A stretch of DNA of 64,000 bases from Elusimicrobiota bacterium (lineage in GTDB: Bacteria; Elusimicrobiota; Elusimicrobia; F11). Below are positions 1,539 through 62,077 of the stretch, piece after piece. The notes under the pieces were generated by a model that worked only from the letters and a program-made list of their open reading frames with translations, ran no database searches and was not told where the DNA came from. Made by a program: the position numbers and the translations under genes. Every line of letters begins with the position of its first letter. The stretch's first letter is position 1. The stretch lies in NCBI GenBank assembly GCA_044221725.1, contig JBGAON010000001.1:448001-512000 (forward strand). Reading direction: 5' to 3'.

Positions 1539-4500
1539 TTGACGCCACGACGCTTTAGAGTTGCTCGCCGCTCCATCGGTTTTCTCACAACGGTAGCCTA
1601 TTTCATTACGAACGTTTTTGTCGTCCCCGGCATGGCCGGGACGAATAGCGTCGATTTCTGGCGTGGCCGCGCCGCTCAGCAAAAAAATCTCGCCTTCACC
1701 GACCTTCGACTCAATTCCGATCCAAACGGCAATTCTTTAAGCCTTCCGTTTGCATCACGCTCGTTCCCGATTTTTGATTCGCTGTTGAAGCGCTTATCGT
1801 TGACGATGCGTGTCCAATCTGTTCGGGTCGGAGCGAAAAATGCCCCAACCGTTTTTTTAATCCAAGACATCCATCGAAATAACGAGGCGCAAAAAAACAT
1901 TGCGCAGGCGTTGTCGGTGATTGACTCTCAGTTGTCGCAGGCCGGCCCCATCCTGGTTGCCGCCGAAGCAGCGCATGGCCCGCTTAACTTTCAGCCGTAC
2001 CGAGCGGCGCCGACGATATCAACACGCAAGGCGATCGCCGACTACCTTCTTCGTGAAAAATATATTTCCGCCGTCGCTTGGTTTGGCCTCTGGCCCGACG
2101 CTTCGAGCAAAATTGTCGGCGTGGACGATGATGGCCTGTATGGTGCGAACGTTGCTGCGGTTCGGGCGGCCGTGAAACACCAGCCTGGCATGGTTGCGGA
2201 AATTCAAAAACTGTCCGCGGATCTTTCGAAACAGAGGGTGAGAGCTCTTTCAAAAAAGCTCGATGAATTGTCGGGCGCGTTAATCGCCTATCACCACGGG
2301 CAGATGCCCATTGTTCAATACGTGCGCCTTCTCGGAAATTACGCGGATCTAACGCATTATCCGATGGTTGAAAAATTGGTTCGTGCGACCAACATCGAAA
2401 CGAAAATCGACTCGGTTCAAGTAAAACAAGAGCGCGACACATTGTTTCGGAAAGTGGCCTCGCGCAAAAGAATTTCCGATTGGCTCGCTCAGGCGACGTA
2501 TGAGTTGAACGCCGGTGCCATCGATTCAAACACGTTCCATCTCGCGTTTAAAAAATTGTTGGCGACAGAGGGTGTCGATCTCTCTTCCACACCCCACTTC
2601 GAGAAATATCTTGAATACGTGGCGCTCGCCGACAGCATTCAGCACGAGGCGCTATTCAAAGAAATTTCCGATGTAACGAAAGAAGCGATTGGAAAAGCCG
2701 CCGCCACGCCAACCGAGCGCAAATTGCTCGAGCGCACGGTGCAGCTGTGTTTGGCGCAAAAACTTGTGAATTTCGAGCTGACGCCGGCGGAATGGGGGGA
2801 ATACAAAAAAGGACGCAGTCCCTTTTTGCCATTCGAAGACTTTTACCGCCTCGCCGAGGCGCGCAGCGAAAAGATGGCGGGAAACATTCTGAAAAGTACC
2901 CAACGGAACGCTGTCCTTGTTGCTGGCGGGTTCCATACGCCGGACATTGCACGAATCCTCGAAGCGCGCGGATTTTCCACGATTACGCTTGCTCCGATCA
3001 TTAGAGACGCGGCCAACATCAAAGGTTCGGACTATCTGAGCGCCTTCTTGCGCGAGCGTAGCCCTCTCGCGAAATTGTTTGAAGGGGAAAAACTCACGCT
3101 TGCGGATTCTGCGCAGTTGCTCGCTGTTCCATCCGCCGAGGCGGCCCAGAATGCCGCGCGCATTCTCAATGGTGTGGCTCAAGCGGCCGCCAAAAATGCC
3201 AAAAACCCGGTTGCCATCATTTCTCATAACGGCGCCACGGTGGAAGCCGGTCCCGGCGTCCGTGGCGATGAGAATCATCGCTTTGAAAACGTGCTCGGTT
3301 ATAAACGGATTGGATTTCGCGAAAAAGAACGGGATTTCAGATTTTCGCGCAAATCGCCCCGGTCTATTTTTCTCGCGAGCATTTTGTCGTTTTCCATCGC
3401 GCATTTTTCCGATGGTGAATTTGCGTTTCAGTTCTTTTTCGTCAGCGGTTTCGTGTTGCTCGCGTGGACCGTTTTTGAGGTGGCCCGTTTTGGCTGGGGC
3501 CTGTATCGCGGTGCGGAATTAAAAGCTCCCGATTTTTATCGCGCGCTGCGCGAAGCGGCCGAACACGGGCTGATACCGGAAAGCGCAGTTCCATTGGTTC
3601 GGCACGCCGATGGGACTTGGTTTGGTTCGTATCAATCGGGCGCGCACGTTTACGATTCGGTAACGAAATCGCATGTCATTTTTGTTCGCACAGAGTTTGC
3701 CTACAACACGAAAGAGTTGGCCCGGATTATCCGCCATGAACTTTTTCACAAGAACCATCAGTCTCAGGCGCCGCCGACAGGTTTTGACGGAAAGGCGGTT
3801 CGACCGCAAACCACGCGGGTCGCCCGGTTTGATTCGTTGATTCGCGCGGTCGCATTGAATCCATTCCTCGATTTCCTTTATGAGTTGGCCGCCCACGTTG
3901 TCGAATGGACGTTTGAACCGACAGAGGAAAAAGCCGTCAATCTTGAGACCCATTCGTTGGATTTTAATGCCGACCTTAATAATCCCGAATTCTTGCACCG
4001 GTTTCACGCCGAGCTGTTAAAAGAGATCGAGACCCTCGGTTCGGGCAAGCTGCGCAAGATTGTGGTGGTTTCCGATCAGCATGGCACGATCGATAAATTT
4101 GATGTGTTGCTGGTTGACGCGATACGTCAGGTCGAGAACCGAATCCCCGATGGATTTGTGCTCGATCCGGACAAAACAATGAACGAGCAATTTGCACCGT
4201 TCGGTTTTCAATTGGAAGACCTGAAGGATCGCATTTTCTTTCACAATCTCGGGGACTTGATGGATCGCGGGCCGTACGGCGTGAAAGTCTATTGGCGTTC
4301 GAAAGAATTGTTGGAAGCGGGAATCAGCGATTTCGTAATGGGCAACCACGATTTGTGGATGCTTATGAATCTGATGGCGTACCACCTACCGTGGGGCCCG
4401 CATTTTGACTTTAAAGCTGGGACCGACACGGAATATTCCGATAAATACGATGACGATTACGGTACCGTTCGCGAAGCGGTCGAACATCACAACCACGCTT

Positions 4501-7500
4501 GGCGCGACGGCGACGAATCGCTCATCGCGTGGTGGGCGGAGCGGCTCGCGGAATTTACGAACGAGCAACGCGATATTCAAAAAAAGAAATGGTCGGCGCT
4601 CGAGCAAAAGGTGAACGGAGCGTTTGAAGAGGATGGGAAAACGCGGCGCAAGGGCACGGGCCTGTATGACAAAGTGTCGGCGAGCATTGAGGCGAACGAG
4701 AAGCACAAAAAATTGTGGGATCAGTTTCGGGGATATTACCTGGTGGACATCTACCGCGGCGTGCGTGCGGTGGGGGAAATGTCGCTTCCCTGGTGGGAAA
4801 ATTTGCTGCAGTCGTTTCAGGAAGCGTACGAGTTGGAAGTAAAGTCGTCGGCCGAATACAATCCTTCCGAGCTCCGTCCGTCCGATGAAGCATGGGAAGA
4901 AGCAATCAAGATGATGCATTCGATCATCAAAGATTTAACCGCCGAACTCGATCAGCACATGGCGCAAAACAAATGGTGGGTCCGCGCGTTTCATGCGCTG
5001 AACCGTGGCAATTACACGACGATGGAATGGTGGGCGAAAGACTGGATTTTTCATGAAGGATGGGGACCTTCGGTCATCAAAGAGTTGAACGAAATTGCCA
5101 GAAAACGAGCCCCCGATTCCTTGGAATCGTTAATCCCAACGACGAACGCGAATTATTTGGGCAACCCCATCATGATGGAAGTGCGCGATTGGATGAAGCA
5201 GAACTTCAATCTGTTTGTTACCGACGAATATCTGACCACCGGCATGCACGCGTTTTTGCCGGTGGATAAAGCCGGACGGTTCTCGTTCCGTTACAATGGC
5301 AACGATTACATGGGAAAAGGTGGTATCGGCCAGCGATCGGTGTGGGAAGGCCTTTCCGCGATTTCAAACAGAGTGAAAACCGGAACCGACCTGCTCGGCA
5401 TGAAGCATGCATTCGATGTCATCAACAATATCTACGCCGATAACACAACCAAAGTGAAACCGCCGGATGTCGCTCACGCGATCAATACGATCGGCCCCCG
5501 TTTGCTGAGCCGAAACAACGGTTACAACCGTTTGTCAACCGGTCACATTCCGTTCCACGAGTTCTACAAGCTCATGAAAGACGATCGACTTGGATTGATA
5601 GATGGATTCCAAATTGATGACTCGGTGATGTTCTCGGATCATGGAATGGGAAAGCGGTTTGACGGACGTGGTGGTTACATTTTTATTTCGCCGGACGGTG
5701 TGCGCTTGCGTGGTTTCGAACACGATGGCGACAAAGAGATCAAATGGAATTCGCGCACCGTAAAAAAAGCTGGCACCGATGAGCAGGTGCTTTTCAAAAA
5801 CGCCGGCATTCCAAAAAGCCGTTTTCTTCCTCAGTTGGAGCGCGAGTACGGAAAACGCATCTCGCAGATTTCGGGTGCGGGCCGGCTCGGGCCGGCCATG
5901 ATCTTCTATTACCTTACGGAGTCGCGGTGGTGGGGAACAGTTTTGCTCGTGGGTTTTGAGATTCCGGTCATCGTAGCGCTTCGGTATTACGCGGGGCCCG
6001 TCGTAGCGGCTAATGTATTGCTTTTCTTTGCGGCGCTTCACGCTCCGCTTTCGGAATCACGCCCCGCGCTTTTTGGCGCACGTTATCAGGGACTGTCGTT
6101 CGCGCTGCGCGTGTTCGTTTTTTCGGCATATGTGTTGGCGCCCATCAATACGTTTGTGGGGTGGGCACTTTTGCCCGCCGCGCTTCAAATCCTCGTCGAC
6201 CTGTTGCTGGTGTTTCCCGGAGCAATCGAAAAACCGGAAACGAAAAGAGAAACCGAGAAACCTGCTGTTCCGGAAGTGATTGTTTCTGTTGTGCCGCGGT
6301 CGCTCACGACATTGGAGCTCGAAACGTATTTGACGACGGTGTTAAACCCCGACGGTATGCGGAAGACCGAACGCACCCGCGCGTTTCAAGAAATTATTGA
6401 TCATGCGGATAAGAACACGCTCGCCATTGTGCACGAGAAATTGCGTCAAACACCCAGCCACAAAGCGTTGGCCACAACGTACAACGGACACGGTTACACG
6501 GTGGTGACCGAGCGCGTTGAGAACCCCGAAGTAAAAGTGCTGGAGTTGTTGTTGGCTCGGCTGCGCGAGAAGTTGAGTGTGAAAATTAAAATGCCGGGCG
6601 CGCCGGCTTACACCAATATCGACGACATTCCCTATCTCTCGTTGCGACGGAGCGTGAGCAACGACAATGAATATCTGTATCCGGTCAAACCGATCGCGAC
6701 GCAACTTATCGATAAAGCGATTTCGTCGAACAAGATCGGTTTAACCGATGTCGCCGATGAACGTTTTCGAAATTTCTTGCTCGCCATTAAGAATCATGTT
6801 GCTGCGCACCCGGACTCGATGTTGCGTTATGTGGTCGTCATGGGCGGGGCGGCCGGCAAAGGAATCTTTTTCCAGGATTCGGTGAACGATCTGGATTTGA
6901 CCGTGCGCCTTGAACTCACCGAAGCGGAGTTTCGACTGTTGCAGGATTCTCATTCGGCCGGGGTGTTGAACTTCAATAAGCAAGAGAAGCGTTTGCTTGC
7001 GCGGAAAATACATGATCATGTTGACCGCGTGTTAACCGAGCTTGCACAATTTGTTGGGGCCGAAAAGGACAAATTGCTCGATCCAGCAAACCTTGTGCCG
7101 ATCCGTACGGCGGACGGGCTCGAGCTGCAATTTTTTGGTCCTATTTTGGGGCGGGATACGAACAATCTTGAGGTCCTCATGCTGCGCACCGCGGCAGCAA
7201 CGGTCACGCTCGACGGCGAAGAAAAAATCAACGGTATGATGAATTTCTATGTGACCGCCTCGTTGTTGCATCTCGCGATCGATGCCGAAGGAAGGATTTA
7301 TCCACGTCTTTTAACGGCCGCCGAGTCAGAAAAGCCGGCTGTTTCTTGGGATGCGTTGGAAAAATTAAGGAAAGGTGTTATCGAAATTGTGATCGATGCC
7401 TTTGAGTGGAATCCGGGGACTTTGCTGCGGGTCGCGGCGATCGAGCTTCGCTACGCGCTTCAAGTGGAAAGCCGACACTGGGATTTCAATACGCTTATCC

Positions 7501-9128
7501 GTCGTTCGATCGGTGATTTCATCTTAAGGCCGAAACCCGCGGGAGCGGTGCGAAAATGCGTCACATCGCTCAAGGTTTTGCTGCAGAGGGCCATCGATGG
7601 ATCGGTGGTTCCGAACGCGGCTCACACGCGGCTGCGCGAAGCGGGCATTTATCAATTCGTCGAAAAATTGATTTCTCCAAGAGAAAATCGTTGGCACCTG
7701 TTGCACGAAGGCGGCATTCGGTTCGGAAAACACGAGGTGCAAAGCATTCAGGTGAAGCTTCCGGCCGGTGAAAGCCGTGCCGATGCAAAAAAAATGGAGA
7801 TTGAAGTTGAGGTTCGGCTCGGTCAGGCCGTGGACATGCGCGTTCATGCGATGGGCCCGCAATTTGACGGAGATGTTGTGCATTTGCTGGGAATGCCACC
7901 CGAAAAGCTCGTGGCGCTTGATGTCACGGTGCTCGATGCCAGCGGAAACCTCGAAAACCGTTTCACAACGCCGGTAAGGTTAACCAATCCGACGGCGGAG
8001 CATTACGGGGGCTATGTGTTTCGGGTTCCGTTCGAATTCAAGAATGCCGGCCCGCACAGAATCGAATTCCGTGTTTTTAATCCGTTCGAGCCCGAGGTGT
8101 TCGCCGACAAAGTGGAGACGACTCTTTTGCCAGATTCGATGGGAATCCCGGTGGGGGCGGAGGAATATATTTTTCGTGTGTTCGGCTTAATGATTTTGCC
8201 GTTAATTCTTTTCTTATTGGTGCCCGTCTTCGCGCCCGGTGATTTCAGGTTCGGTTCCTGGCTCGGATTTTTTGTGTTGGTGGGAATTCCCGCCGCTGCG
8301 TTTACCTTTAGTGTGATTGGAAATGCGTTGGCCCATTTTCCCGTGGACGGATTGTCCGCTTTTGAGAACTTTCCGCTCCGCGTCGTTCGGGCGTTTCATT
8401 ACACGGCTTTGTTCTGCGAAATGTTCATTGCCGAAGGACCCTGGGTCGCAATTGTCGGTGTCATCGACGAGCACAAGCGATACAACGAAAAAATGGACGC
8501 GACCGGCGGAATTCCAGATTCGCTAACGAATGGCGCGAATGGCAGGTCGCTCACCCGAAGGCCCATTCACTTGCGATCTTCTATTCGAACGTATGGGTTG
8601 GCGGAATGGAAGAACTTTTCTCCATCGCAATTGGACTCCGAGGATGTCATTCATGTGAGCTTGGCCGAGTTTGAGCACACGAACGAGCTAATGCGGAAGT
8701 CCCGGGCGTTTCATGCGCTTCTGGAACGAATTTTCGATCATGCCGTGGCGTCTCGCCTGGTGGTTACGTATCCAAGCGCAATGACAATCGATGAAGCGAA
8801 AACGCGCTTTCAGGAATTGCTCTATGAGCATCACCTATCCATTCCAATGAGCGTGATTTCTCGCAATGTGATCTTTAATCAACGAGATCGAGCAAATCCT
8901 GTTTCTGTGACGCAGCAATACAAAGAAGTGTTTGGCGGTCGCGTGTTGCATGCGCTGTCACTGACCAGAAGCGGACAGTATTGGGATTTTAATGATGTTT
9001 CATTGAATTCTGATCTGCCATCGTTGGTGATTGAAGTTATCGATTTGCTCCGCGGGCGATCGATGTTCTTGTCGAAAGAGACGATCCAAGAAATCTTGGC
9101 GCACAAACACGCGAATCAAAGTGCCTAA
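1539..9128 (+). CDS. Giant multidomain membrane/exported protein (2529 aa): conserved N-terminal domain, HExxH module, metallophosphoesterase, nucleotidyltransferase-like domain, CPBP-like membrane modules
   Basis: Continuous ORF, TTG start after AGGGGG; motifs IQDIH, GGFH, HELFH, SDQHG/GDLMDRG/GNHD/GHIP, GG...DLDL, AEEYIFR; N-terminal ~520 aa paralogous to 55157..62077. Confidence 0.9.
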   Translation: MTPRRFRVARRSIGFLTTVAYFITNVFVVPGMAGTNSVDFWRGRAAQQKNLAFTDLRLNSDPNGNSLSLPFASRSFPIFDSLLKRLSLTMRVQSVRVGAKNAPTVFLIQDIHRNNEAQKNIAQALSVIDSQLSQAGPILVAAEAAHGPLNFQPYRAAPTISTRKAIADYLLREKYISAVAWFGLWPDASSKIVGVDDDGLYGANVAAVRAAVKHQPGMVAEIQKLSADLSKQRVRALSKKLDELSGALIAYHHGQMPIVQYVRLLGNYADLTHYPMVEKLVRATNIETKIDSVQVKQERDTLFRKVASRKRISDWLAQATYELNAGAIDSNTFHLAFKKLLATEGVDLSSTPHFEKYLEYVALADSIQHEALFKEISDVTKEAIGKAAATPTERKLLERTVQLCLAQKLVNFELTPAEWGEYKKGRSPFLPFEDFYRLAEARSEKMAGNILKSTQRNAVLVAGGFHTPDIARILEARGFSTITLAPIIRDAANIKGSDYLSAFLRERSPLAKLFEGEKLTLADSAQLLAVPSAEAAQNAARILNGVAQAAAKNAKNPVAIISHNGATVEAGPGVRGDENHRFENVLGYKRIGFREKERDFRFSRKSPRSIFLASILSFSIAHFSDGEFAFQFFFVSGFVLLAWTVFEVARFGWGLYRGAELKAPDFYRALREAAEHGLIPESAVPLVRHADGTWFGSYQSGAHVYDSVTKSHVIFVRTEFAYNTKELARIIRHELFHKNHQSQAPPTGFDGKAVRPQTTRVARFDSLIRAVALNPFLDFLYELAAHVVEWTFEPTEEKAVNLETHSLDFNADLNNPEFLHRFHAELLKEIETLGSGKLRKIVVVSDQHGTIDKFDVLLVDAIRQVENRIPDGFVLDPDKTMNEQFAPFGFQLEDLKDRIFFHNLGDLMDRGPYGVKVYWRSKELLEAGISDFVMGNHDLWMLMNLMAYHLPWGPHFDFKAGTDTEYSDKYDDDYGTVREAVEHHNHAWRDGDESLIAWWAERLAEFTNEQRDIQKKKWSALEQKVNGAFEEDGKTRRKGTGLYDKVSASIEANEKHKKLWDQFRGYYLVDIYRGVRAVGEMSLPWWENLLQSFQEAYELEVKSSAEYNPSELRPSDEAWEEAIKMMHSIIKDLTAELDQHMAQNKWWVRAFHALNRGNYTTMEWWAKDWIFHEGWGPSVIKELNEIARKRAPDSLESLIPTTNANYLGNPIMMEVRDWMKQNFNLFVTDEYLTTGMHAFLPVDKAGRFSFRYNGNDYMGKGGIGQRSVWEGLSAISNRVKTGTDLLGMKHAFDVINNIYADNTTKVKPPDVAHAINTIGPRLLSRNNGYNRLSTGHIPFHEFYKLMKDDRLGLIDGFQIDDSVMFSDHGMGKRFDGRGGYIFISPDGVRLRGFEHDGDKEIKWNSRTVKKAGTDEQVLFKNAGIPKSRFLPQLEREYGKRISQISGAGRLGPAMIFYYLTESRWWGTVLLVGFEIPVIVALRYYAGPVVAANVLLFFAALHAPLSESRPALFGARYQGLSFALRVFVFSAYVLAPINTFVGWALLPAALQILVDLLLVFPGAIEKPETKRETEKPAVPEVIVSVVPRSLTTLELETYLTTVLNPDGMRKTERTRAFQEIIDHADKNTLAIVHEKLRQTPSHKALATTYNGHGYTVVTERVENPEVKVLELLLARLREKLSVKIKMPGAPAYTNIDDIPYLSLRRSVSNDNEYLYPVKPIATQLIDKAISSNKIGLTDVADERFRNFLLAIKNHVAAHPDSMLRYVVVMGGAAGKGIFFQDSVNDLDLTVRLELTEAEFRLLQDSHSAGVLNFNKQEKRLLARKIHDHVDRVLTELAQFVGAEKDKLLDPANLVPIRTADGLELQFFGPILGRDTNNLEVLMLRTAAATVTLDGEEKINGMMNFYVTASLLHLAIDAEGRIYPRLLTAAESEKPAVSWDALEKLRKGVIEIVIDAFEWNPGTLLRVAAIELRYALQVESRHWDFNTLIRRSIGDFILRPKPAGAVRKCVTSLKVLLQRAIDGSVVPNAAHTRLREAGIYQFVEKLISPRENRWHLLHEGGIRFGKHEVQSIQVKLPAGESRADAKKMEIEVEVRLGQAVDMRVHAMGPQFDGDVVHLLGMPPEKLVALDVTVLDASGNLENRFTTPVRLTNPTAEHYGGYVFRVPFEFKNAGPHRIEFRVFNPFEPEVFADKVETTLLPDSMGIPVGAEEYIFRVFGLMILPLILFLLVPVFAPGDFRFGSWLGFFVLVGIPAAAFTFSVIGNALAHFPVDGLSAFENFPLRVVRAFHYTALFCEMFIAEGPWVAIVGVIDEHKRYNEKMDATGGIPDSLTNGANGRSLTRRPIHLRSSIRTYGLAEWKNFSPSQLDSEDVIHVSLAEFEHTNELMRKSRAFHALLERIFDHAVASRLVVTYPSAMTIDEAKTRFQELLYEHHLSIPMSVISRNVIFNQRDRANPVSVTQQYKEVFGGRVLHALSLTRSGQYWDFNDVSLNSDLPSLVIEVIDLLRGRSMFLSKETIQEILAHKHANQSA

Positions 9129-9164
9129 GCGAAAATTTTTGCGCTGAATTGATACACTCGGCGC

Positions 9165-9938
9165 GTGAAACGTTCGTTTCTTTCTTCGCAAAGCGTGGTT
9201 CTTTCGGATCGGCCGCTTGTCGTCGGTACGTTGACCAGCGCGTTGCCTGTTTCCTCGCAATTAAAAACAGCAAAATCGGCCGACGTTGATCTCATCGAAC
9301 TGCGTCTGGACGGGTTTCTAAAAAAGCAAGGACCGTTCCAGCGCATTCAAGATTCCGCGCGGAACATTCTTCGCGAAATAAAAACGAACACGCGATTTCC
9401 AATTCTTCTCACGCTGCGGGCCGCCGACGAATCCGGCGTGCCAAAAAAATCCGCGATGAACGATGCGAAGCGCGCCGAAATTCTTGCGCGGCTTCTGCCG
9501 GCGGTCCAAATGGTCGATGTGGAAATATCGCACGCCGAATTCGCGCGCCGTATGACGGTCATCGCCCACATCCACAACGTTGATGTGATCCATTCGGCTC
9601 ACGATTTCTCCGGCCGCTTGCCGCTCGATCGTTTTTCGAAATTTTCGAAACAATCGATAAAATTTAAAGGCGACGTTTTCAAAGTGGCGGTGACACCGAA
9701 AACAAACGATGATCTCGAAAAATTTTTGTGGTGGGGGAAAGACCTTCGGAATCGGAACAAGGTCTTGATTGGCATGGGGCCCGTTGGGTTAATTTCGCGC
9801 GTTGTTGCGTTCAGTTTCGGTTCGATCCTGACCTATGGCCATTTGGGTCGCTCCGCCGCGCCGGGTCAAATGCCGGTTAATGATCTCGTGAAATCAATTA
9901 GGAATTCGTATCCCCCTCTCCCTTTAGGGAGAGGGTAG
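9165..9938 (+). CDS. aroD: Type I 3-dehydroquinate dehydratase
   Basis: DLIELRLD, LLTLR..ESG, SAHDF, FKVAV, IGMG..G.ISR, APGQ motifs. Confidence 0.9.
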   Translation: MKRSFLSSQSVVLSDRPLVVGTLTSALPVSSQLKTAKSADVDLIELRLDGFLKKQGPFQRIQDSARNILREIKTNTRFPILLTLRAADESGVPKKSAMNDAKRAEILARLLPAVQMVDVEISHAEFARRMTVIAHIHNVDVIHSAHDFSGRLPLDRFSKFSKQSIKFKGDVFKVAVTPKTNDDLEKFLWWGKDLRNRNKVLIGMGPVGLISRVVAFSFGSILTYGHLGRSAAPGQMPVNDLVKSIRNSYPPLPLGRG

Positions 9939-9982
9939 CGTGAGGGAAGTCACGCGGGTAGCCCGTCCCCTAACCCCTTCCC
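9912..9982. repeat. Palindromic element, CCCTCTCCC family, forming the aroD/exonuclease junction
   Basis: CCTCTCCCTTTAGGGAGAGG is identical to the copy in ispE (35080-35099). Confidence 0.75.
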
Positions 9983-10581: not shown

Positions 10582-10601
10582 AAGGCGGATGAGGCCAATT
10601 A

Positions 10602-10723
10602 ATACCCCACCCTACCCTCCCCACTGAAACGACGTGGGGAGTCCTCCTCAAGATATAAGGCGTTCAGCGCCAGTTGGTGCTTCCTCCCCATGTCTCGTCA
10701 ATGGGGAGGGTAGGGTGGGGTAT
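10602..10723. repeat. 122-bp palindromic MITE/RPE-like element
   Basis: Terminal IR ATACCCCACCCTACCCTCCCCA / TGGGGAGGGTAGGGTGGGGTAT with two internal hairpins; second copy at 56411-56535. Confidence 0.85.
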
Positions 10724-10883
10724 AAAATCCCTTTCCATATATACGGTTGTATTGCCAAAGATCGTGAGCGTGGTGTCGGTGAACACGCGCTGCGCCGTTT
10801 GCGCGTAAGGATCGGTGAAGAGCAATGGAAAGCATTGCTGCGCCGGATTGAGAAACATCAATTTGTAAGGAATGCGAGCGAAA

Positions 10884-17966: not shown

Positions 17967-18050
17967 GGGTCGGTGGCAGAGCGGTCAAATGCACCAGACT
18001 GTAAATCTGGCGGGCTACGCCCTACGAAGGTTCGAATCCTTCCCGGCCCA
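17967..18050 (+). tRNA. tRNA-Tyr(GTA)
   Basis: Acceptor stem GGGTCGG/CCGGCCC, anticodon arm CCAGA-CTGTAAA-TCTGG, long variable arm, GGTTCGAATCC; CCA not encoded. Confidence 0.95.
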
Positions 18051-35333: not shown

Positions 35334-35356
35334 TTTTTGTAGGATCCGTCCCTCAT

Positions 35357-35428
35357 TGGGGCGTCGCCAAGCGGTAAGGCACGGGCCTTTGGAGCCCGCA
35401 TTCGAAGGTTCGAATCCTTCCGCCCCAG
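35357..35428 (+). tRNA. tRNA-Gln(TTG)
   Basis: Acceptor stem TGGGGCG/CGCCCCA, anticodon arm CGGGC-CTTTGGA-GCCCG, GGTTCGAATCC; usual position after ispE. Confidence 0.95.
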
Positions 35429-35532
35429 TTTCGTGGTTTATATCTGGCAGATGCTTTACGGTTCATACCGCGCGAGCGCAGTTTTTGTGAATTAATGTAA
35501 GATCGCAACTCGATTTGTTTAATCCTGCTCTT

Positions 35533-53607: not shown

Positions 53608-55068
53608 ATGGAACTCCAAGCACTTTCCGCAACAGAAATTTCTGCCGGCGTCTCGTCAAAAAAGTTTTCCGCCACCGATGTGGTTAATGCCTCGTTGGCG
53701 GCTATCAAAAAGTCCAACGGTGAATTGAACGCGTATTTGAGCGTCGCGGAGTCCGCCGCGCTTGAAGCCGCCAACGCCGTCGACGAGAAAGTGAAATCCG
53801 GGAAGCCCGCCGGCCGTTTGGCGGGCGTGCCGATCGCCATCAAAGACAACATGATGGTGAAAGGCCAGCCAGTTACCTGCGCATCAAAAATTCTTGGAAA
53901 TTACGTGGCACCGTACAACGCGCACGTGATCGAGCGTTTGGTTGCCGAAGGCGCGATCATGATTGGCAAAACAAATTTGGACGAGTTCGCGATGGGATCA
54001 TCAACCGAAAACTCGGCGTTTGGTCCATCGCGCAATCCGTGGGACACCTCCCGCATTCCCGGCGGTTCCTCCGGCGGAAGTGCGGTGGCCGTGGCGACGC
54101 GGACCGTGCCGATCGCGCTTGGAAGTGACACCGGAGGATCGATTCGTCAGCCCGCGTCCTTGTGTGGAATTCTTGGAATGAAACCCACGTACGGCCGGGT
54201 GTCGCGTTACGGCGTGGTTGCATTTGCGTCGTCGCTCGATCAGATTGGACCTTTCACGCATACGCCCGACGATATGGCGCTCACGATGTCAATCATCAGC
54301 GGCAAGGACGAGCGAGATTCAACGTCGGTGGACAAAGCCGTGCCCGATTTTTCTGCAGAGATGAAAAAACCGATTCATGGTTTGCGCGTTGGAATCCCAA
54401 GAGAATATTTCGTCGAAGGAATGGACGCCGACGTAAAGAAAGCCGTTCTCGAAGCGGCCCAAGTTTTAAGGAAGCTCGGCGCCGACGTAAAAGATATTTC
54501 GCTGCCAAACTCCGACCACGCGCTCGCGGTCTATTACATTCTTGCGCCGAGCGAAGCGAGCTCGAACCTCGCGCGCTTCGACGGTATGCGTTACGGATTC
54601 CGAAACCCAAACGCGGCGAATCTTATCGAGCAATACGGGCTTAATCGGCACGATGGTTTTGGTGCGGAGGTGAAGCGCCGCATCATGATCGGAACCTACG
54701 CACTCTCCTCTGGATACTACGATGCGTTCTACGCAAAGGCACAAAAAGTGCGCACGCTCATCAAACGCGATTTCGATCAAGCGTTCGCGAACGTCGACGT
54801 GATTCTTACTCCCGTTTCGCCAACCCCGGCCTTTAAGATTGGCGAGAAATCCGACGATCCGCTCACCATGTATTTGTCGGACATTTGCACAATCCCGTGC
54901 AACCTGGCCGGCATTCCCGGTATCTCAGTTCCGTGCGGTTTTACGAGCGGAAATCTACCGATCGGCGTACAGTTCTACGCAAATCTTTTCCAAGACAGTC
55001 TGCTGCTACAAGTTACGAACGCCTACCTCTGCGAAACCCTCTGGCATAAAAAAGCCCCAAAAAATTAA
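53608..55068 (+). CDS. gatA: Asp/Glu-tRNA amidotransferase subunit A
   Basis: GKTNLDEFAMGSSTE, PGGSSGGS, GSDTGGSIRQP, EVKRRIMIG. Confidence 0.97.
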   Translation: MELQALSATEISAGVSSKKFSATDVVNASLAAIKKSNGELNAYLSVAESAALEAANAVDEKVKSGKPAGRLAGVPIAIKDNMMVKGQPVTCASKILGNYVAPYNAHVIERLVAEGAIMIGKTNLDEFAMGSSTENSAFGPSRNPWDTSRIPGGSSGGSAVAVATRTVPIALGSDTGGSIRQPASLCGILGMKPTYGRVSRYGVVAFASSLDQIGPFTHTPDDMALTMSIISGKDERDSTSVDKAVPDFSAEMKKPIHGLRVGIPREYFVEGMDADVKKAVLEAAQVLRKLGADVKDISLPNSDHALAVYYILAPSEASSNLARFDGMRYGFRNPNAANLIEQYGLNRHDGFGAEVKRRIMIGTYALSSGYYDAFYAKAQKVRTLIKRDFDQAFANVDVILTPVSPTPAFKIGEKSDDPLTMYLSDICTIPCNLAGIPGISVPCGFTSGNLPIGVQFYANLFQDSLLLQVTNAYLCETLWHKKAPKN

Positions 55069-55072
55069 TCCG

Positions 55073-55121
55073 TTCACAACTCCGTTACGTAATTTTAACG
55101 GGAGCTTAATGCCGATTTGAT
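55073..55121 (+). promoter_or_regulatory. Phased TTA(C/A) direct repeats upstream of giant gene 2
   Basis: TCAC 55074, TTAC 55085, TTAA 55095, TTAA 55106, TTGA 55117; aligns without gaps to 1441-1489. Confidence 0.55.
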
Positions 55122-55156
55122 TGAATCTTCGACGATAAACGTCGTCAGGAATTCGA

Positions 55157-58100
55157 TTGAAAAACCGGCTAGCCCCTCAGAAAATCATCGCGCTATTTTT
55201 GTGTACCGTGCTGTTTGCGACGCACGTGGCGTTCGCCCACTTGCCCGAGACGTCTTTGTGGTCCGAACGACGCACCGGGTCGTCGCCCTGGAATGCCGCT
55301 ATTGAGGGCCCACGTTCCGTTGGGACCCTATGTCCTGACGTGAGCCGTTCCCGAATGAATGGTTTGTTCGTGGGCGCGATGGATTTATCGTCGCTCAATC
55401 CCTTTGTTACGGTTCGCAAAGTACTCAAACCCGCCGGCCACTCGAAATCGGTTGTGTTGCACATTCAAGATATTCACGGGAACCAAGAAGCCCAACTCAA
55501 TATCAGCAGAGCGCTCCAGAAACTAAACGAACAGAAAAAGATTGATATGGTCGCGCTCGAAGGTGCCTACCGAATATTTGATTTGTCGGTATTCCGTCAG
55601 TTCCCACGTCCGAACACCATTCGGGCGGTGGCAAATTACCTTTTGCGCGAAAAAAGAATATCCGGGCCCATTCACGCGATGATGACGTCTCCGGTCGTCG
55701 GCGTTTCTGTTATTGGCGTCGATGACGCAAACCACTACGCCGCCAATGTTCAAGCCGTGCGCGATGCGAGTTCACAGAAAGACAATGTTCAGCACGTTCA
55801 ATCCGTGCAACGCATCAAACTTGATTCCGAGAAGCGCAAATTGTTCAACGCGGCACTTTTGGATTTCGATCGCGCCGTCGAAGCGTATCGTTCGGAAAAA
55901 CTGCCGTTCGCCTCGTATGTGAAGTTGTTGGCCACGGGCCGATCGGACGTGTCGCCGGCGGTTCGTGATTATCTTGAGGTTCTGCGCATCGAAGCGAATA
56001 TCAATTTTTCACAAGTCGAAATAGAAAGAGATCTTTTGGTTGCGCAGATTGTTTCTCGGAATCGCGTGATCGCGGAACAGCTTCACAAAATGGCGTTCGC
56101 GTTTCGTGCGCAACAGATCGATCACGAGGCTTTTTATCTTTGGTTGAGAGACGCGGCCCGAAAATCCCACGTTCCAATCGAGAACTTTTTGGTCTTTAAA
56201 GAATATCTGCGCTACGTTCTATTGTCCGATCGCATTGACGTGGAAGCGGTTTTAGCGGAGGCGCGTCAACTCGAGCAACAGAGATTCCGCTGGCTCGTAA
56301 AAACAGCGGATGAACGAAGGTTGGTCGACGCGTCGAAAAGATTGTACTTGGAGTCTAAGCTCGTCGATTTTTCTTTAACCAAAAGAGAGTGGGAAGAGTA
56401 CGAGGAATTAATACCCCACCCTGCCCTCCCCACTGATAAGGCGTGGGGAGGAAAACTTTTTTTCACTAACCCTAAAACCTCGGGGGGGGTGCTCCCTCTC
56501 CATGTCTCCTCAATGGGGAGGGTAGGGTGGGGTATAGACGCTGTAAACCTTTCCCCTTTCGAACAGTTTTATCGGCAAGCGGAGCTCCGTGATGGGGCGA
56601 TGGCGAATAATTTTTTGAACGCCCAACGTTCAATAAACAATCTTCCACGAACAACGAGCGTTCTTATCACTGGCGGTTTTCATTCCTCCGGTATCGATGA
56701 CGCGCTTACAAAGGCAGGTTGCACCGTTGTCTCGATCGTTCCTCGCGTCACAAGCGCGGATGCGTCAAAAGCCTCGGCCTACTTAAGCGTTTTTGCTCAA
56801 GAAAAATCTCCGCTTGAAAAACTTTTTGAGGGACAAAAATTATTTCTCGCCAACGATCCGATGGCGCCTCTGATCCAATTTGTAGAAGCGCCGGTCGAGG
56901 TTGCCCTTTTTGAGGCGGCCAATGCGTTGTCAGCCGGGACCGAGACGATGTTGCCTTTGCCCGCTGATGCAACATTGAAAATTGATCGCGCCGGTGTGGG
57001 CTCGGCTCAGGGGGTGCTGACGCGTGGCGTAAGTGTGGTTCCGGTTGAGCTACGCGCCAACCCAAATGAAATTCTCGAAATGACCGACCGGTCCGTTAGC
57101 CCTTCGGTCGCGCGGCGGGCGATTGGTGGCGTGCGACGATTTTTTCACTGGTTGTTACGGAAATGCGGATTCGTTTATGCCGATGAAAACGCCGAGTGGA
57201 CCTCGAATCTCCATCTCTACGAGGCGGGTCAATTGCTGCTTCAAAGGGGTGCCGTCGGCGATGTAAGAGGTTCTTCAAACAATGTCGGTTTTGTTGGAAT
57301 GATGCCATTCAATCCGTTTGCGGTGTGGTACGAGGAGGCCTCGGAGCGTGCGGAGCAGGGCCATAGAGTGTGGCTTCCGTACGTAATCGCCGCGATGGGC
57401 GGCGTGTTCGAAGAATTGGTGATCCGAAATCTTCTTCAATTCGGAATTCTTGAAGCGTGTTTCGGCATGAGTGCGTGGTGGTCTGCGTTCGTTTACGCAT
57501 CGCTCTTTGCGACGGTTCTGCATTCGAAAATATACACAGCGGAAAGCCCCACGGCCGTTGGTGTAAATTATCTTCTCGGGTGGCAGCGTTGGATTTTGTT
57601 CGCGCTCGCGGTCGGATTGGGTTCGACCGGAGACCTTGAGGTCATCACCTTGGGTCACGCATTTTTTAATCCTCTCATGAGGTACATCGGTGGTCCGCTC
57701 GGCATGATGACAGAGCCGAACAATAAGAAAAGAGCAAAACCGTTTGATCCAGATGCATCAATTCTTTACACGATGCATCTGTTCAACCATTTGGACTCCG
57801 AATATCGAAAGCTCTGGAACGCGCCGGAGCCGGAGATGAAAAATCCGATGTACGCCCGTCCGGGCCAAAGACTTTTTGTGAAAGAAAATCTTTCCGTGGC
57901 CGAACGAACACAAATCGACGATCTTGTCGACACGCTAATGAAAGGTCAGCGCGGAGTGCCGGGTGCGAAACCTTTCCGCTACATGACGACGGCCGAGCAC
58001 CTTTTGATTGGCAAAGCTTTGCGCTCGAATTTGCGGGGGGAAGGCGCTGCAAGCAACAACCTCACCGAACCGCAACGGGAATTTTTGAGAAATTTGCTGG

Positions 58101-61100
58101 TGATGTGGAATATGGCGAATTTCTGGACGTTAACCCGGAAAATTCCCGCGAGGTCACGCAACGAAGTATTTCAAAACGTGCTCCTCTATGTGTTGAGACG
58201 CATTATTTACAAATACGACTATCACAAGGGCCTCAATTTCAATACGTTGGCGGGCTGGGCGGCGACGCAAGAAGTGTCGGTCCATTACCGCGAGAAGCAC
58301 AAACTGGCGGTTACAAAGCGTGTCACCGCCAAAGACCCCGACGCATTTTGGGAAATGCAGCCTGAAAGGGAAAAACGCAGCGATGATGGTCTTATCGAAA
58401 AGTTGCTCAAGGTTTTGGGCCGCCTCTCTCCCAAAGAAGAGAAAGCTCTGCGGTTGCGTTACGGGTTGATGAACACCAAGAAGGGTAAAAGTTTCGCTGA
58501 GCTCGCCGCCACGCTGAACATGACCGTGTGGGCCGTTCAAGATTTCGTTGATGTGGCCTACGCGCATTTGGAACGCGAATTTGCGCGTTTGGAAGATTTC
58601 CGTTTTCGACACACGGATGAAAATATTGTGCGCGATTTATCGCCGCTCGAGCACCGTGTGCTGAAATTGGCCTATCAAAGCCATGCTGTCTTTGACGATG
58701 CGGATATCGCCACTCTCCTCAATTCAAAAATCAGATCCAATCGGCCGAAGCTCACGCCCCTGCAAGTCAAAAAAATTCGAAAACGGGTGGAGTATCGTAT
58801 TCTGCACGGAAGGTTTCCTCCAAATCCTTTCGGCCCACCGCATTCGGTGTTTCACAACATGATGATGTTGCTTGGGGTGCCGTCGTCGCATATGTTGAAG
58901 ATTGTTGCGTTGTTTTCAATTCCACTGGAATCCGGGATCATTTTTCTGGGTTTGTTCGCGTTCGAGCATTCCTTTTGGTTGCAGCTGTTGTACATGATCG
59001 GCGCGGGTGTGCTTGATTTTTGCATCGGATATCTTGGATACAAAACCAGTGGTTCTTCTCTGCCAATAACGAGGCTGTTAATTGCGCATCATTTTTTTGT
59101 GATCGCGATGTATCTCTGTGGTTGGCGATTGTTGGCAAGGTCGGAACACGACGTTCTCATTTTTACCGTGATTGCGTCGATTCACATGCTGATTGATGCG
59201 GTAATTCTTTGGTGGCAGAACATCAGAAACTGGTTTTCGAGCGAGCCACGGCTTACGGATGATCCGGGTACCGCTGAGTTTCATATGGACGCGATGCGCG
59301 ACCGGGATCGCGTCGTCATCAATGGTCTGCCCGACAACCATCCGGTTGTAAGGAACCAGAGGAACTACGAAGGCAAGGAATTCATTTCCGAGCATAGAAT
59401 GAATCAGAACGTGGAATCGTTGCCGGAAGGGGACCTGGAGAAGCAAGAATGGTTGACCGCCAAAATTCCGCTGCAGAAACAAGCGGCAGCACAGTTTAAA
59501 AAGGTAGTGGATGCGATTCCCTCGGTTGTACCGATTGTCTATTCCGAATTGGCTCGAAATTTCAGTGAAGCGCGCGCGACGGAAGCGTTTGCCCGGAAGG
59601 CCGCGGAAATCCAAAAGCGGTTGTTGGAAGATGTGGCGGTCGTGGGTGTTTTCACGGAGCGGCGGCTGATGATTCCGCAGCTTTATCCATCGCGCTACCG
59701 GTTTGGGCGGTTGCGCATGAGCCGTGATCAGAGCGTGCTGTATGTTCCCATGCAGCTGTTTGCGGAAATGCGCTCGCCCGTTGAGATCGAACATTTTGCG
59801 TTTAGTTTTATTTTCGGACTCGAATGGCTGGACAAATACAAACGTGTCAAAGCGGAGGGCAAGGACAGTCGGCGGATCCATCTCGCGATGCACAAGCTCG
59901 AGGAAAGATGGAACGCCAAAGAAAAGAATTTCGTGAACATCCGTTTTCGGCTTCGGCATTTCGTGGACTATCTGAATTATCAATTCGATTATGTCCGTTC
60001 CTATTTCAAGATTGGAGCCGAATTCCGGCAACTCGAAGCGAAATACGCCGATATCACAAAAGAGCTCGAACAGGTGGTGTCGAGGAAAAAATTCCGTACG
60101 GTTGCTCATGGGGGAATGGACATCAATCGTGATTTAACAGCGGTTCGATTCTTCGAAAATCGGTCCACGATCTCCCGGGCTCAAAGTGACGTCGAACGGC
60201 TTGTTGATAAAGCCGAGCTGGTGGGCCTATTCGAAATTGCGCGTAAGATGATCTTGTTCGGCAACTATCTGTACATTTGTGAGACCGGAATTAATCCCGC
60301 TTTGCGAACTGTCCCGAACATTCGTTTGCTCGCACGAACACGAGGATACCGGCAGCTTATTCGCCTGCTGCGCGCTCTGAAGGACCGGCATATTCCGTTC
60401 GAATTGGGACATCGCGGTTGGCTTTCTTTTGTTTTGCCGGGCCCTCGTGACATAACGTACGTGCCAATCGGCTGGGGTGAAGTTGAAATGCTTTTGGCAA
60501 GCACCGAGAAACTTTTGAAATCCATTTTCGAACGTCAAATGGAAATTATTCACAAGCGCAGCAACTACGACATTATTGCGGCGAACTGGGAAATTGTTCA
60601 AGCGGCGCTCAAAGAGGTCCGTGAGATGTGCAAACAAGCCATCGAGGCGCACGATGCGCTTGAGGCGAATTTGCACCGCGTTGCGAATGCGCTTCTATGG
60701 ATCGCGGGTCAACTTAAGCCCAACGAGACGCCGCGAATCAGCGATCTGAAACGTCTTCGGCTGAGCGTGGACAACGTTGCGTTGGATATTCCGCTGAAAG
60801 ATTGGTTTCCGTTTCTTACGGAAAAGGAGTTTGTTTCGGTATTAAGGGACGAAAAAGCGCGCACAAATTTTCGGTTGCCTTCCGAAAAACAGGTCAAAGA
60901 ACTGATCCGCCTGTTTCGCTTTCTTGGTACGCCCAATCTCGAGCTTAAGAACCTGATCGGAGACGTGGTGCTGGTGGTGAAAGACGAGCGCGACGTGCAG
61001 ACCGTGATCGACAACTTCGATGATCTGAACAGCGCACAACTGGATTCTCTGACGATCATTGCACGGAACAAGAAAGTTAAAAATTTATTGGAGCGGCGTT

Positions 61101-62077
61101 TTCTTGAAACCGGGATTCGTGATCAAGAAATTATTCAAGCGGATCCATCTCTTTTCTCAATCCAGAGTCCGAGCCCCGAAGAACGGATTAATATTGCGCT
61201 GGTTCCGAAATATTTTGAAGGCACGCCGGTGAACATTAATCGTATGACGCTCGTGTTTTTCTCCAGTACAAAAATGCGCTTCGCCGAAATTTCCGATAAG
61301 GACGAATTGAACTTCGCACGCATGGCCATGTTTTTTCCTGCTGCCGATTCTGAGCGTTTGGGGCAACGGGATCACGGGCCGTTTTTTAAGGTGATGGAAA
61401 TTTCGCAAGAAAGAGCGCTGCAACAAGTGGTGCAAATCATCAGCAAGCCAAAAACGAAGGAACACCCGCGACTGGGTCTCATGTGGTTCATGCCGTCGAC
61501 GTGGGGGTATGCGATCGCATCGCACGAAGCGAGAGCCGGAAGAATGCCCGTGGCGATTTCCTACGCTTTTGCCGCGTTCGGTGGTCTCATGGAAGAAATT
61601 TTAATTCGGCGAACCGTTCAGACGCTCGTTTTTCATGTTCCTTTTGGAACGCCGGATGTTTTTGTGTTCGCTGTTGTCTACGCGCTTCTTTTTGCGGTTG
61701 TTTTTCATCAATGGGTTGTTGATGAACAAACCGGCCAATTTCGGCGCGCCACCTTCGAGGAAAAGTCTTACTTTTTTCTCTTGGCGCTTACGATTGGGCT
61801 CTTCGGCGGGGCTGCCAGCAGTTTTGAAGCAATGGGATGGCTGCACGCGTTGATTAACGCGCTGATTGCCTCTTCGTCCCCGTCACGCAACACCGAATTA
61901 ACCGGTACGCCACTCAACCTTGGTGTCAAATATATTGACGCACGTCATCCGACGCCGCAGCCGCCGTTCGATCGCGCGCAGCGCGAGAGGGAAATTGCGC
62001 GCCGTGCGTTTGTCCCTGAATCACGCCGATATTTTCAGAATTATCGTCCGCGGCTCGCAGCCCTGCGCTCAAGCTAA
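55157..62077 (+). CDS. Giant multidomain membrane/exported protein (2306 aa): conserved N-terminal domain, CPBP-like modules, embedded sigma-70-like domain
   Basis: TTG start, signal peptide; IQDIH...GGFH domain shared with 1539..9128; FEELVIR and MEEILIRR modules; KYDYHKGLNFNTLAGW and LSPKEEKALRLRYGL. Confidence 0.9.
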   Translation: MKNRLAPQKIIALFLCTVLFATHVAFAHLPETSLWSERRTGSSPWNAAIEGPRSVGTLCPDVSRSRMNGLFVGAMDLSSLNPFVTVRKVLKPAGHSKSVVLHIQDIHGNQEAQLNISRALQKLNEQKKIDMVALEGAYRIFDLSVFRQFPRPNTIRAVANYLLREKRISGPIHAMMTSPVVGVSVIGVDDANHYAANVQAVRDASSQKDNVQHVQSVQRIKLDSEKRKLFNAALLDFDRAVEAYRSEKLPFASYVKLLATGRSDVSPAVRDYLEVLRIEANINFSQVEIERDLLVAQIVSRNRVIAEQLHKMAFAFRAQQIDHEAFYLWLRDAARKSHVPIENFLVFKEYLRYVLLSDRIDVEAVLAEARQLEQQRFRWLVKTADERRLVDASKRLYLESKLVDFSLTKREWEEYEELIPHPALPTDKAWGGKLFFTNPKTSGGVLPLHVSSMGRVGWGIDAVNLSPFEQFYRQAELRDGAMANNFLNAQRSINNLPRTTSVLITGGFHSSGIDDALTKAGCTVVSIVPRVTSADASKASAYLSVFAQEKSPLEKLFEGQKLFLANDPMAPLIQFVEAPVEVALFEAANALSAGTETMLPLPADATLKIDRAGVGSAQGVLTRGVSVVPVELRANPNEILEMTDRSVSPSVARRAIGGVRRFFHWLLRKCGFVYADENAEWTSNLHLYEAGQLLLQRGAVGDVRGSSNNVGFVGMMPFNPFAVWYEEASERAEQGHRVWLPYVIAAMGGVFEELVIRNLLQFGILEACFGMSAWWSAFVYASLFATVLHSKIYTAESPTAVGVNYLLGWQRWILFALAVGLGSTGDLEVITLGHAFFNPLMRYIGGPLGMMTEPNNKKRAKPFDPDASILYTMHLFNHLDSEYRKLWNAPEPEMKNPMYARPGQRLFVKENLSVAERTQIDDLVDTLMKGQRGVPGAKPFRYMTTAEHLLIGKALRSNLRGEGAASNNLTEPQREFLRNLLVMWNMANFWTLTRKIPARSRNEVFQNVLLYVLRRIIYKYDYHKGLNFNTLAGWAATQEVSVHYREKHKLAVTKRVTAKDPDAFWEMQPEREKRSDDGLIEKLLKVLGRLSPKEEKALRLRYGLMNTKKGKSFAELAATLNMTVWAVQDFVDVAYAHLEREFARLEDFRFRHTDENIVRDLSPLEHRVLKLAYQSHAVFDDADIATLLNSKIRSNRPKLTPLQVKKIRKRVEYRILHGRFPPNPFGPPHSVFHNMMMLLGVPSSHMLKIVALFSIPLESGIIFLGLFAFEHSFWLQLLYMIGAGVLDFCIGYLGYKTSGSSLPITRLLIAHHFFVIAMYLCGWRLLARSEHDVLIFTVIASIHMLIDAVILWWQNIRNWFSSEPRLTDDPGTAEFHMDAMRDRDRVVINGLPDNHPVVRNQRNYEGKEFISEHRMNQNVESLPEGDLEKQEWLTAKIPLQKQAAAQFKKVVDAIPSVVPIVYSELARNFSEARATEAFARKAAEIQKRLLEDVAVVGVFTERRLMIPQLYPSRYRFGRLRMSRDQSVLYVPMQLFAEMRSPVEIEHFAFSFIFGLEWLDKYKRVKAEGKDSRRIHLAMHKLEERWNAKEKNFVNIRFRLRHFVDYLNYQFDYVRSYFKIGAEFRQLEAKYADITKELEQVVSRKKFRTVAHGGMDINRDLTAVRFFENRSTISRAQSDVERLVDKAELVGLFEIARKMILFGNYLYICETGINPALRTVPNIRLLARTRGYRQLIRLLRALKDRHIPFELGHRGWLSFVLPGPRDITYVPIGWGEVEMLLASTEKLLKSIFERQMEIIHKRSNYDIIAANWEIVQAALKEVREMCKQAIEAHDALEANLHRVANALLWIAGQLKPNETPRISDLKRLRLSVDNVALDIPLKDWFPFLTEKEFVSVLRDEKARTNFRLPSEKQVKELIRLFRFLGTPNLELKNLIGDVVLVVKDERDVQTVIDNFDDLNSAQLDSLTIIARNKKVKNLLERRFLETGIRDQEIIQADPSLFSIQSPSPEERINIALVPKYFEGTPVNINRMTLVFFSSTKMRFAEISDKDELNFARMAMFFPAADSERLGQRDHGPFFKVMEISQERALQQVVQIISKPKTKEHPRLGLMWFMPSTWGYAIASHEARAGRMPVAISYAFAAFGGLMEEILIRRTVQTLVFHVPFGTPDVFVFAVVYALLFAVVFHQWVVDEQTGQFRRATFEEKSYFFLLALTIGLFGGAASSFEAMGWLHALINALIASSSPSRNTELTGTPLNLGVKYIDARHPTPQPPFDRAQREREIARRAFVPESRRYFQNYRPRLAALRSS
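56411..56535. repeat. 125-bp palindromic element in frame inside giant gene 2
   Basis: Same terminal IRs as 10602-10723; the encoded peptide is absent from the paralog. Confidence 0.9.

Follow-up and report, generated by a model that had tools for sequence, protein, structure and literature searches.

The closest described counterparts of the proteins considered here are the giant proteins of Omnitrophota ('Archaeovorins', West-Roberts et al. 2023, 10.1101/2023.11.21.568195; class 1 of Nielsen and Lui 2026, 10.64898/2026.06.07.730766). As portrayed in the main texts of these preprints, they combine a signal peptide, membrane helices and strings of sugar-metabolism and signalling enzymes, measure at least 10,000 amino acids, occur as one or a few per genome, carry C39 and S8 peptidases and SecA-like domains, and are favoured to act extracellularly; whether such proteins stay whole or are cut was named as an open question by West-Roberts et al., and both preprints settle neither cleavage nor function. 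Here, we analyse a window of 64,000 nucleotides (nt) from an Elusimicrobiota bacterium (assembly GCA_044221725.1, contig JBGAON010000001.1, positions 448,001 to 512,000 of the forward strand; coordinates below count from its first letter), which contains two giant genes, gene 1 and gene 2, of a family with the same general make-up. In contrast to the published giants, this family has 26 copies of 775–8,881 amino acids in one genome, with a common promoter, N-terminal domain (hereafter the head) and tail. Its members form a probably co-regulated multicopy family of polyprotein-like chains, in which a fixed chassis (promoter, signal peptide, TIKI-type head and Ala-ended tail) holds shuffled cargo.

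Many unrelated enzyme domains per chain, in mosaic order, are also typical of the polyvalent proteins of phages and conjugative elements, in which interspersed HExxH peptidases have been proposed to free domains in the host cell; peptidase-like domains are likewise interspersed here. Polyvalent proteins, as described there, are products of mobile elements and move together with DNA (Iyer et al. 2017, PMC5512222), whereas the present family is chromosomal and has a signal peptide and TIKI head; no relative of it was found among 52 pattern matches in a search of viral contigs, which did not extend to plasmids. MARTX and polymorphic toxins, in the accounts consulted, resemble the family in placing several swappable effector domains on one secreted chain, from which those toxins release them by proteolysis (PMC6254334, PMC3482391), but no RTX repeats, cysteine protease domain or immunity gene were found in our family, and its cargo is metabolic or regulatory rather than lytic. 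The nearest parallel to its probable mode of action is offered by polyvalent proteins or by MARTX-type chains with multiple cargo. It is a real and undescribed group of large polyprotein-like proteins: we found no publication on this head, linker, module repeat, tail or multicopy family in a search that left most subscription papers outside, and such domains may be listed in the two preprints' supplements. A term search of the main texts of both preprints gave no mention of Tiki, the ChaN protein or CPBP.

A profile of the shared N-terminal domain, a check that the first-pass annotation of this DNA had suggested, recovers 26 open reading frames (ORFs) in the 2.82-Mb genome; they take up 6.4 % of its DNA, and the domain is always N-terminal. 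The profile also matches 50 of 151 genomes of the phylum, mostly in several copies (none of 45 in one family), and 9,871 protein clusters at 50 % identity; heads occur on frames of 10,285–11,603 amino acids in other genomes. Among the best 80 of 278 matches in species genomes, 78 loci all bear the title Elusimicrobia or Elusimicrobiota, one of them placed, presumably correctly, by its Candidatus species name. A search with a distant head gave 261 proteins, 120 of them listed, and our figures for distant members rest on those 120, all of which match the head profile. Among the matches listed, 23 of the 26 that carry an organism label are from Omnitrophota, so that the same head stands on named Omnitrophota proteins. 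Genes 1 and 2 fall short of the Archaeovorin-type length (10,000–30,000 amino acids or more), and Pfam finds neither C39/S8 nor SecA_DEAD domains in them; one distant member (P0174) has SecA_DEAD. In four other-genome loci (L043, L051, L052 and L091) the head is split into two frames, by assembly error or decay.

The chassis is recognizable at both ends of the gene. A 36-nt element of four short repeats lies before 25 of the 26 family genes, and a matrix trained on the family genes themselves (leave-one-out scores 5.8–44 bits) finds 32 sites of at least 20 bits in the genome, compared with 0, 0 and 1 in three shuffled genomes. The chain ends in Ala in 21 of 26 paralogues versus 159 of 1,693 other long ORFs (p 4e-17), and in A, S, G or V in all 26 versus 458 of 1,693. 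The same type of tail is shared by 95 of the 120 distant members and by 81 of 140 other representatives, a share that rises to 71 of 93 among those of 1,500 amino acids or more. It may resemble ssrA-type degrons and Tsp substrates, and its probable reader, during transfer or turnover, is an unfoldase or protease that binds C-termini. A family-wide C-terminal domain was not found, with only clusters of six to eight among 222 ends.

What lies between head and tail varies independently of the head: the modules, enzymes as well as regulators, change places within the fixed chassis. Among the 26 paralogues there are only six cargo alignments, and across 190 proteins, pairs of heads at 50–65 % identity share more than half of their cargo in 2–8 % of cases. 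The replacement of cargo takes place within a genus. Six genomes of the same family were compared at each locus, leaving out four more distant ones in which gene order around the slots differs. The slot before aroD, taken by gene 1, is filled in four and empty in two; three of the fillers have only the head in common with gene 1, and one also the phosphoesterase. The slot after gatA, taken by gene 2, is filled in two and empty in four; one filler shares the head only, and the other the head, one cargo and one module in a different order, on a contig that is cut short. In no filled slot is the architecture that of gene 1 or gene 2.

The cargo itself is of a normally cytoplasmic kind. Gene 2 carries a sigma-70-family factor (NCBIfam TIGR02937, 44.2 bits against a cut-off of 42.9, E 1.5e-11), and the metallophosphoesterase of gene 1 recurs in 12 other giants, 11 of which carry the head, at varying positions and 39–46 % identity. 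Other paralogues contain hexokinase, glycogen synthase and phosphorylase domains, kinases, PP2C, FHA, GGDEF, WD40 and dehydroquinate synthase, among others, and the cargo of paralogues and relatives further includes response regulators, adenylate and uridine kinases and a GH18 domain. The HExxH motif is found 1.4 times per 10,000 residues of family cargo versus 0.42 in other genes. For 11 of 24 other paralogues, Pfam gave no match outside the head at E 0.001; the gene 1 cargo with a G..G..DxD motif has no match in Pfam, NCBIfam or the PDB, and the second cargo of gene 2 has no Pfam match and no significant NCBIfam match. Two candidate labels, nucleotidyltransferase for the former and class III fructose bisphosphatase for the phosphoesterase, were dropped for want of support in the same three databases. 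The first-pass annotation had described a constant N-terminus followed by variable enzymes and regulators, and this description is borne out by the 26 paralogues, the 190-protein comparison and the slots: the family is large, its architecture varies, and the proposed folds hold where they could be tested, by Pfam and Atlas for the metallophosphoesterase and NCBIfam for the sigma factor.

Both genes were found as first annotated, namely as stop-free ORFs with TTG starts (gene 1, 2,529 amino acids; gene 2, 2,306 amino acids) whose products align over some 500 residues at the N-terminus. BLASTP pairs residues 83–574 of gene 1 with 77–620 of gene 2 at 31 % identity (E 1e-56), and every motif quoted in the first-pass annotation is present in the translations. 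Beyond this ~450-residue domain the two have the type of membrane module and the C-terminal tail in common; as had been noted, they share no other soluble domain, the next-best alignment having an E value of 0.17. The upstream repeat reported for both corresponds to the four-repeat element, and the neighbours are, as described, of the housekeeping kind (aroD, dnaQ-like, gatA and a zinc-ribbon protein in Pfam). The features of the two genes are as follows.

1441..1476, +: four-repeat promoter/operator element of gene 1, 36.6 bits
1539..9128, +: gene 1 (P0001); its protein is already recorded as the product of a called gene
1539..1637, +: signal-peptide-like N-terminus of gene 1, read from the sequence; a similar segment in 26/26 paralogues
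1776..3128, +: head of gene 1, predicted TIKI/EreA/ChaN fold with a long helical insert (AlphaFold2 model, ChaN match, invariant residues)
3366..3503, +: one or two membrane helices behind the gene 1 head (hydropathy: one clear peak, a second by eye)
3516..3938, +: zincin-like segment of gene 1, HExxH at residues 733–737 (sequence; Pfam eCIS_core weak, E 0.04)
3981..5888, +: gene 1 cargo, large metallophosphoesterase (PF00149, 23.4 bits against a cut-off of 21.5 on the isolated region; Atlas 0.91)
5931..6248, +: degenerate CPBP-like four-helix module of gene 1, last His replaced (family profile E 5e-5; sequence)
6786..7808, +: gene 1 cargo with G..G..DxD motif (residue 1770), nucleotidyltransferase-like by motif only
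8178..8468, +: last membrane cluster of gene 1 (hydropathy)
9081..9128, +: C-terminal tail of gene 1, ending QSA
55073..55108, +: four-repeat promoter/operator element of gene 2, 28.5 bits
55157..62077, +: gene 2 (P0002), ORF and translation
55157..55237, +: signal-peptide-like N-terminus of gene 2, ending A-F-A, read from the sequence
55385..56881, +: head of gene 2 (BLASTP to the gene 1 head), with an in-frame palindromic repeat at ~56406–56536
57329..57715, +: CPBP/Rce1-like module 1 of gene 2, with EExxxR, FxxxH and HxxxN (PF02517 E 0.0012, under cut-off; structural model)
57719..58846, +: gene 2 cargo, sigma-70-family factor (regions 2–4 at ~58124–58567), between two membrane modules
58856..59233, +: degenerate CPBP-like module 2 of gene 2, with E, H and HxxxD (sequence; failed the anchor filter)
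59234..61486, +: second cargo of gene 2, 29 % identity to L064 and L124, at other positions in a few relatives
61508..61894, +: CPBP/Rce1-like module 3 of gene 2, with EExxxR, FxxxH and HxxxN (the genome's best PF02517 match, E 0.0018, under cut-off)
62033..62077, +: C-terminal tail of gene 2, ending RSS, with no final Ala

The head was modelled with AlphaFold2 on 98 aligned rows (predicted local distance difference test, pLDDT, 88; predicted template modelling score, pTM, 0.85). The best structural match of the model among 48,161 chains was ChaN (2g5g; Z 11.1, root-mean-square deviation (rmsd) 4.9, 179 residues aligned), and EreA-like proteins, EreC, HopBA1, PMT and RRSP, among them five more TIKI-superfamily structures, followed at Z 6.5–8.1 (2rad, 2qgm, 5t09 and 6xcq at 7.9–8.1), a range in which unrelated alpha/beta folds score similarly. 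Residues D110, H112, E143, R442 and H466 are invariant in all 98 rows, and the H, E, R and H are kept in 120 of the 120 distant heads. RRSP is described as a TIKI peptidase with a known catalytic set (PMC6254334), to which the acid-x-His, Glu, Arg, His set of the head was matched by order and spacing, without residue-level superposition. On the strength of its modelled parallel beta-sheet core and ordered catalytic residues, we assign the head to the TIKI/EreA/ChaN fold; it is probably a hydrolase, and may be a peptidase. The earlier idea that the N-terminus is a trafficking domain alone does not agree with a predicted TIKI-superfamily hydrolase fold that has kept its catalytic residues. Compared with described members of the TIKI/TraB/EreA/ChaN superfamily (ChaN 2G5G, EreC, Bcr135 and RRSP), which have the same type of core and residue set, the family head has a helical insert of ~230 residues, is always fused before cargo and falls mostly below the Pfam cut-off: PF04187 matches four of 24 other paralogues, one of them above it. 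A search of the head profile against PDB sequences gave no credible match.

Cargo units are punctuated, by four-helix membrane modules in Elusimicrobiota and by the linker R-[SA]-E-x-R in Omnitrophota relatives. Among the membrane clusters of Elusimicrobiota members, 118 of 370 fit the pattern E..FxxxH..HxxxN/D, compared with a shuffled mean of 11 (maximum 21). The full set of EExxxR, FxxxH and HxxxN is present in gene 2 modules 1 and 3 and partial in most others; these two modules are the only PF02517 matches of the genome (19.6–19.8 bits versus a cut-off of 22.4), and the distant family member P0246 has a precomputed PF02517 match. A model of module 1 (pLDDT 75) matched residues 125–243 of MmRce1 (4cad), its TM4–TM7 core, at Z 5.2 and rmsd 4.3, third of 48,161 chains and tied with unrelated ones. 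Seven chains reached a Z of at least 5, including 6u0o_A, MmRce1 and 8oqz_C, the first and last of which we take to be CPBP-related. EExxxR and HxxxN are described as motifs of CPBP proteases (PMC11980579), and on weak family evidence the modules may be regarded as CPBP/Rce1-like. They resemble the described intramembrane glutamic endopeptidases of this type (PF02517; MmRce1, 4CAD; myxosortase MrtX, PMC11980579) in a putative four-helix core and, in gene 2 modules 1 and 3, in both motifs; they differ in consisting of that core only, in being repeated between cargo, and in being usually degenerate and under the cut-off. A first module profile, seeded on four modules of the window, did not grow, and a search with the module alignment, a weak test, gave no homologue among 8,000 candidates. 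A Gly-Met-Met-like cut site seen by eye beside modules was rejected, its motif information being equal to or barely above that of shuffles.

The linker occurs 703 times in Omnitrophota-type members, in at least two copies in 82 of 124 proteins, and its RSELR form is present in 130 copies where 1.0 is expected. Within Pfam stretches of 18 proteins, picked for having both motifs and domains, one of 139 linkers was found against 14.5 expected; of 567 motifs, 30 lie in the cores of shared modules (128 expected) and 104 at module edges (35 expected). Linker types group together on the tree of heads (11 changes versus 49 when shuffled), which does not show that heads cut linkers, because kin share labels. 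A k-mer delimiter sought in the 26 proteins of this genome was not found. In some lineages (P0174, P0177, P0181, P0188 and P0238; P0243, P0246 and P0265), the repeated words x-S-L-G and R-T-S-P/T replace R-[SA]-E-x-R.

These boundaries make it likely, judging from sequence, that the chain is cut there and that individual proteins, for instance the gene 2 sigma factor, are thereby released. The reading that we prefer, with a probability of roughly 45 %, is that the members are exported polyproteins which would be processed and whose freed, cytoplasm-type cargo would act in a partner cell, either host or prey. The cutter in Omnitrophota would be the head, acting at short linkers such as R-[SA]-E-x-R; in this genome, the head, the embedded Rce1/CPBP-like and HExxH modules, or both, could take this part. 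Through its kinases, phosphatases, sigma factors and sugar enzymes, the cargo would then redirect signalling and carbon flow in the partner. Export is suggested by a signal-like N-terminal segment, recognized by eye in all 26 paralogues. In five of 13 paralogues examined, gene 2 included, the head is followed by the first cargo or module with no helix in between, and 58 of the 120 Omnitrophota-type members have no hydrophobic helix past the signal, yet carry enzymes such as PPDK, GAPDH and hexokinase. In 69 modules, Lys and Arg make up 0.13–0.15 per residue of the flanks (the middle loop is also rich) versus 0.02–0.025 of the opposite turns, so that cargo beside the modules reads as cytoplasm-facing; for cargo that depends on ATP, NAD or a polymerase, on chains that are exported, the cytoplasm of another cell makes most sense. 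The transfer of giant proteins between bacteria has been reported (10.64898/2026.03.19.712371). More tentatively, Elusimicrobiota and Omnitrophota may possess a chromosome-encoded, virus-like form of polyprotein delivery, with dozens of co-regulated genes per genome and a built-in TIKI- or CPBP-type protease that would cut each secreted chain at coded boundaries. The sigma factors, kinases, phosphatases and carbon-metabolism enzymes released into a host cell would then take over its transcription and sugar flow, and would not kill it outright.

Several observations weigh against the preferred reading. Foldseek gave only weak matches for the head, none at E 0.001; the first acid of the catalytic set varies in ~30 % of the distant heads, and some TIKI folds are described as non-catalytic (PMC6254334). 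PF02517 matches six of 41 modules, every one under the cut-off, and most modules are degenerate, without full EExxxR; the Z of 5.0–5.5 of the module matches equals that of unrelated chains, Foldseek found no match for the module, and an iterated module profile failed to recover the modules of gene 2. No cut-site motif was found beside the modules, and R-[SA]-E-x-R is essentially absent from this genome (two loose matches in 26 proteins, and five in 244 Elusimicrobiota proteins), which is why the linker evidence comes from relatives. The Lys/Arg contrast of the modules is partly due to short loops, the cargo background being 0.116. A Sec signal normally leads only to the periplasm, and membrane helices normally stop in the inner membrane of the producer. 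The genome has a single canonical SecA; Pfam scans of the neighbours gave no delivery machine adjoining gene 1 or gene 2, and of the 11 secretion or pilus ATPases above cut-off in the genome, none was tied to the giant family by any test.

The main rival, which we consider less likely, would leave the proteins in the inner membrane of the producer, with the head as a periplasmic sensor or hydrolase and the cargo facing the cytoplasm of the same cell. The cargo would there be a tethered multi-enzyme chain, or else be released by the embedded intramembrane modules, in a form of regulated intramembrane proteolysis that could, for example, free the sigma factor. This arrangement is on the list of Nielsen and Lui (10.64898/2026.06.07.730766). 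The module flanks obey the positive-inside rule, eight of 13 paralogues do have a helix behind the head, and with one helix in that place the topology of gene 1 would be an ordinary one; by single-sequence search, a stand-alone homologue was found in the genome for only nine of 17 cargo domains, and none for the other eight. Residence in the inner membrane agrees less well with gene 2 and the four other paralogues that lack a helix between the head and the first cargo or module, with the distant members that are wholly helix-free after the signal, and with a turnover of cargo within a genus that would be unusual for housekeeping. Action outside the cell, in which many enzymes on the surface or in the periplasm would form a coat for digesting or processing material from prey, has been argued in print for the Omnitrophota giants (West-Roberts et al., 10.1101/2023.11.21.568195), and would agree with the universal signal-like segment, the helix-free members and the GH18 domain. 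It is nevertheless unlikely here: sigma factors, protein kinases, PP2C, FHA, response regulators and adenylate or uridine kinases require RNA polymerase, ATP or cytoplasmic partners, and the module flanks read as cytoplasm-facing.

The first-pass annotation had proposed a candidate polymorphic polyprotein/effector system, likened to polymorphic toxins. What stands of this likeness is the constant N-terminus, with its Sec-type signal, before a variable remainder. However, variation runs along the whole chain, the cargo is multiple and internal, there is no C-terminal toxin tip, and Pfam scans of the 26 proteins found no toxin family; no immunity gene is present either, the downstream genes being aroD and a conserved zinc-ribbon gene, which are kept where the giant gene is absent. 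A classical toxin for kin competition, with a C-terminal toxin domain and an immunity gene, is thus largely refuted and highly improbable; by its defining features the family is not a polymorphic toxin, and 'polyprotein' or 'polyvalent protein' fits better. We give equally little credence to the notion that these are domain-collecting ORFs, largely non-functional or selfish, with mostly dead cargo. Slots are gained and lost, many modules are degenerate and an integrase fragment precedes gene 1, as such a notion would have it, but the 26 frames are long and stop-free, the promoter, signal, catalytic residues and tail are conserved across two phyla, and six of six aligned relatives of the phosphoesterase keep its metal-binding motifs unchanged.

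Thousands of unannotated proteins belong to the family. With a candidate protease domain of ~450 residues, candidate cut sites and a candidate recognition tail, the whole-or-cut question becomes testable in vitro. If the cargo is delivered, the family would represent bacterial parasitism by metabolic and transcriptional reprogramming, and, if the proposal is true, a new source of sequence-specific proteases.

Parts of the chassis were also seen apart from the family. The family promoter precedes four non-family genes (G000:C2:130413, C3:384572, C3:793566 and C5:215636), one of which encodes an 8,776-residue surface-type protein; two of the four come directly after family genes. An ORF of 8,370 amino acids (G000:C5:256702-281814) lacks the head, yet has two promoter copies, a signal of similar type and a tail ending in SQA, so the chassis can occur without a head. 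There is no orphan toxin cassette beside gene 1 or gene 2; directly upstream of another family gene lies a headless, tailed ORF of 1,616 amino acids (L017, G000:C4:162856-167706), which ends in KAA and is possibly an orphan cargo string. Six headless large ORFs of 8,005–18,016 amino acids in the same genome represent further giants with other N-termini.

Within the window, an integrase core fragment (Pfam rve; 405–983, minus strand) lies just upstream of gene 1, a position taken by other genes in relatives. Two RNA-library runs of one study gave matching contigs over gene 2, and equally over its flanks, which is no evidence for transcription; one read contig joins 55062 to 62254 (side 29, depth 2.6), a signal too weak for calling an empty-site strain. 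Transfer RNA (tRNA) genes for Tyr (17967–18050) and Gln (35356–35429) are present, and the giant genes adjoin neither. Positions 2–388 encode the C-terminal end of a headless ORF of 13,703 amino acids, with a beta-rich, sorting-like end domain common to several large ORFs of the genome. The palindromic repeat that stands in frame in the gene 2 head, where it adds ~40 residues to a variable loop, also occurs between genes at 10597–10724, and related pieces fall into 18 300-nt bins spread over four contigs.

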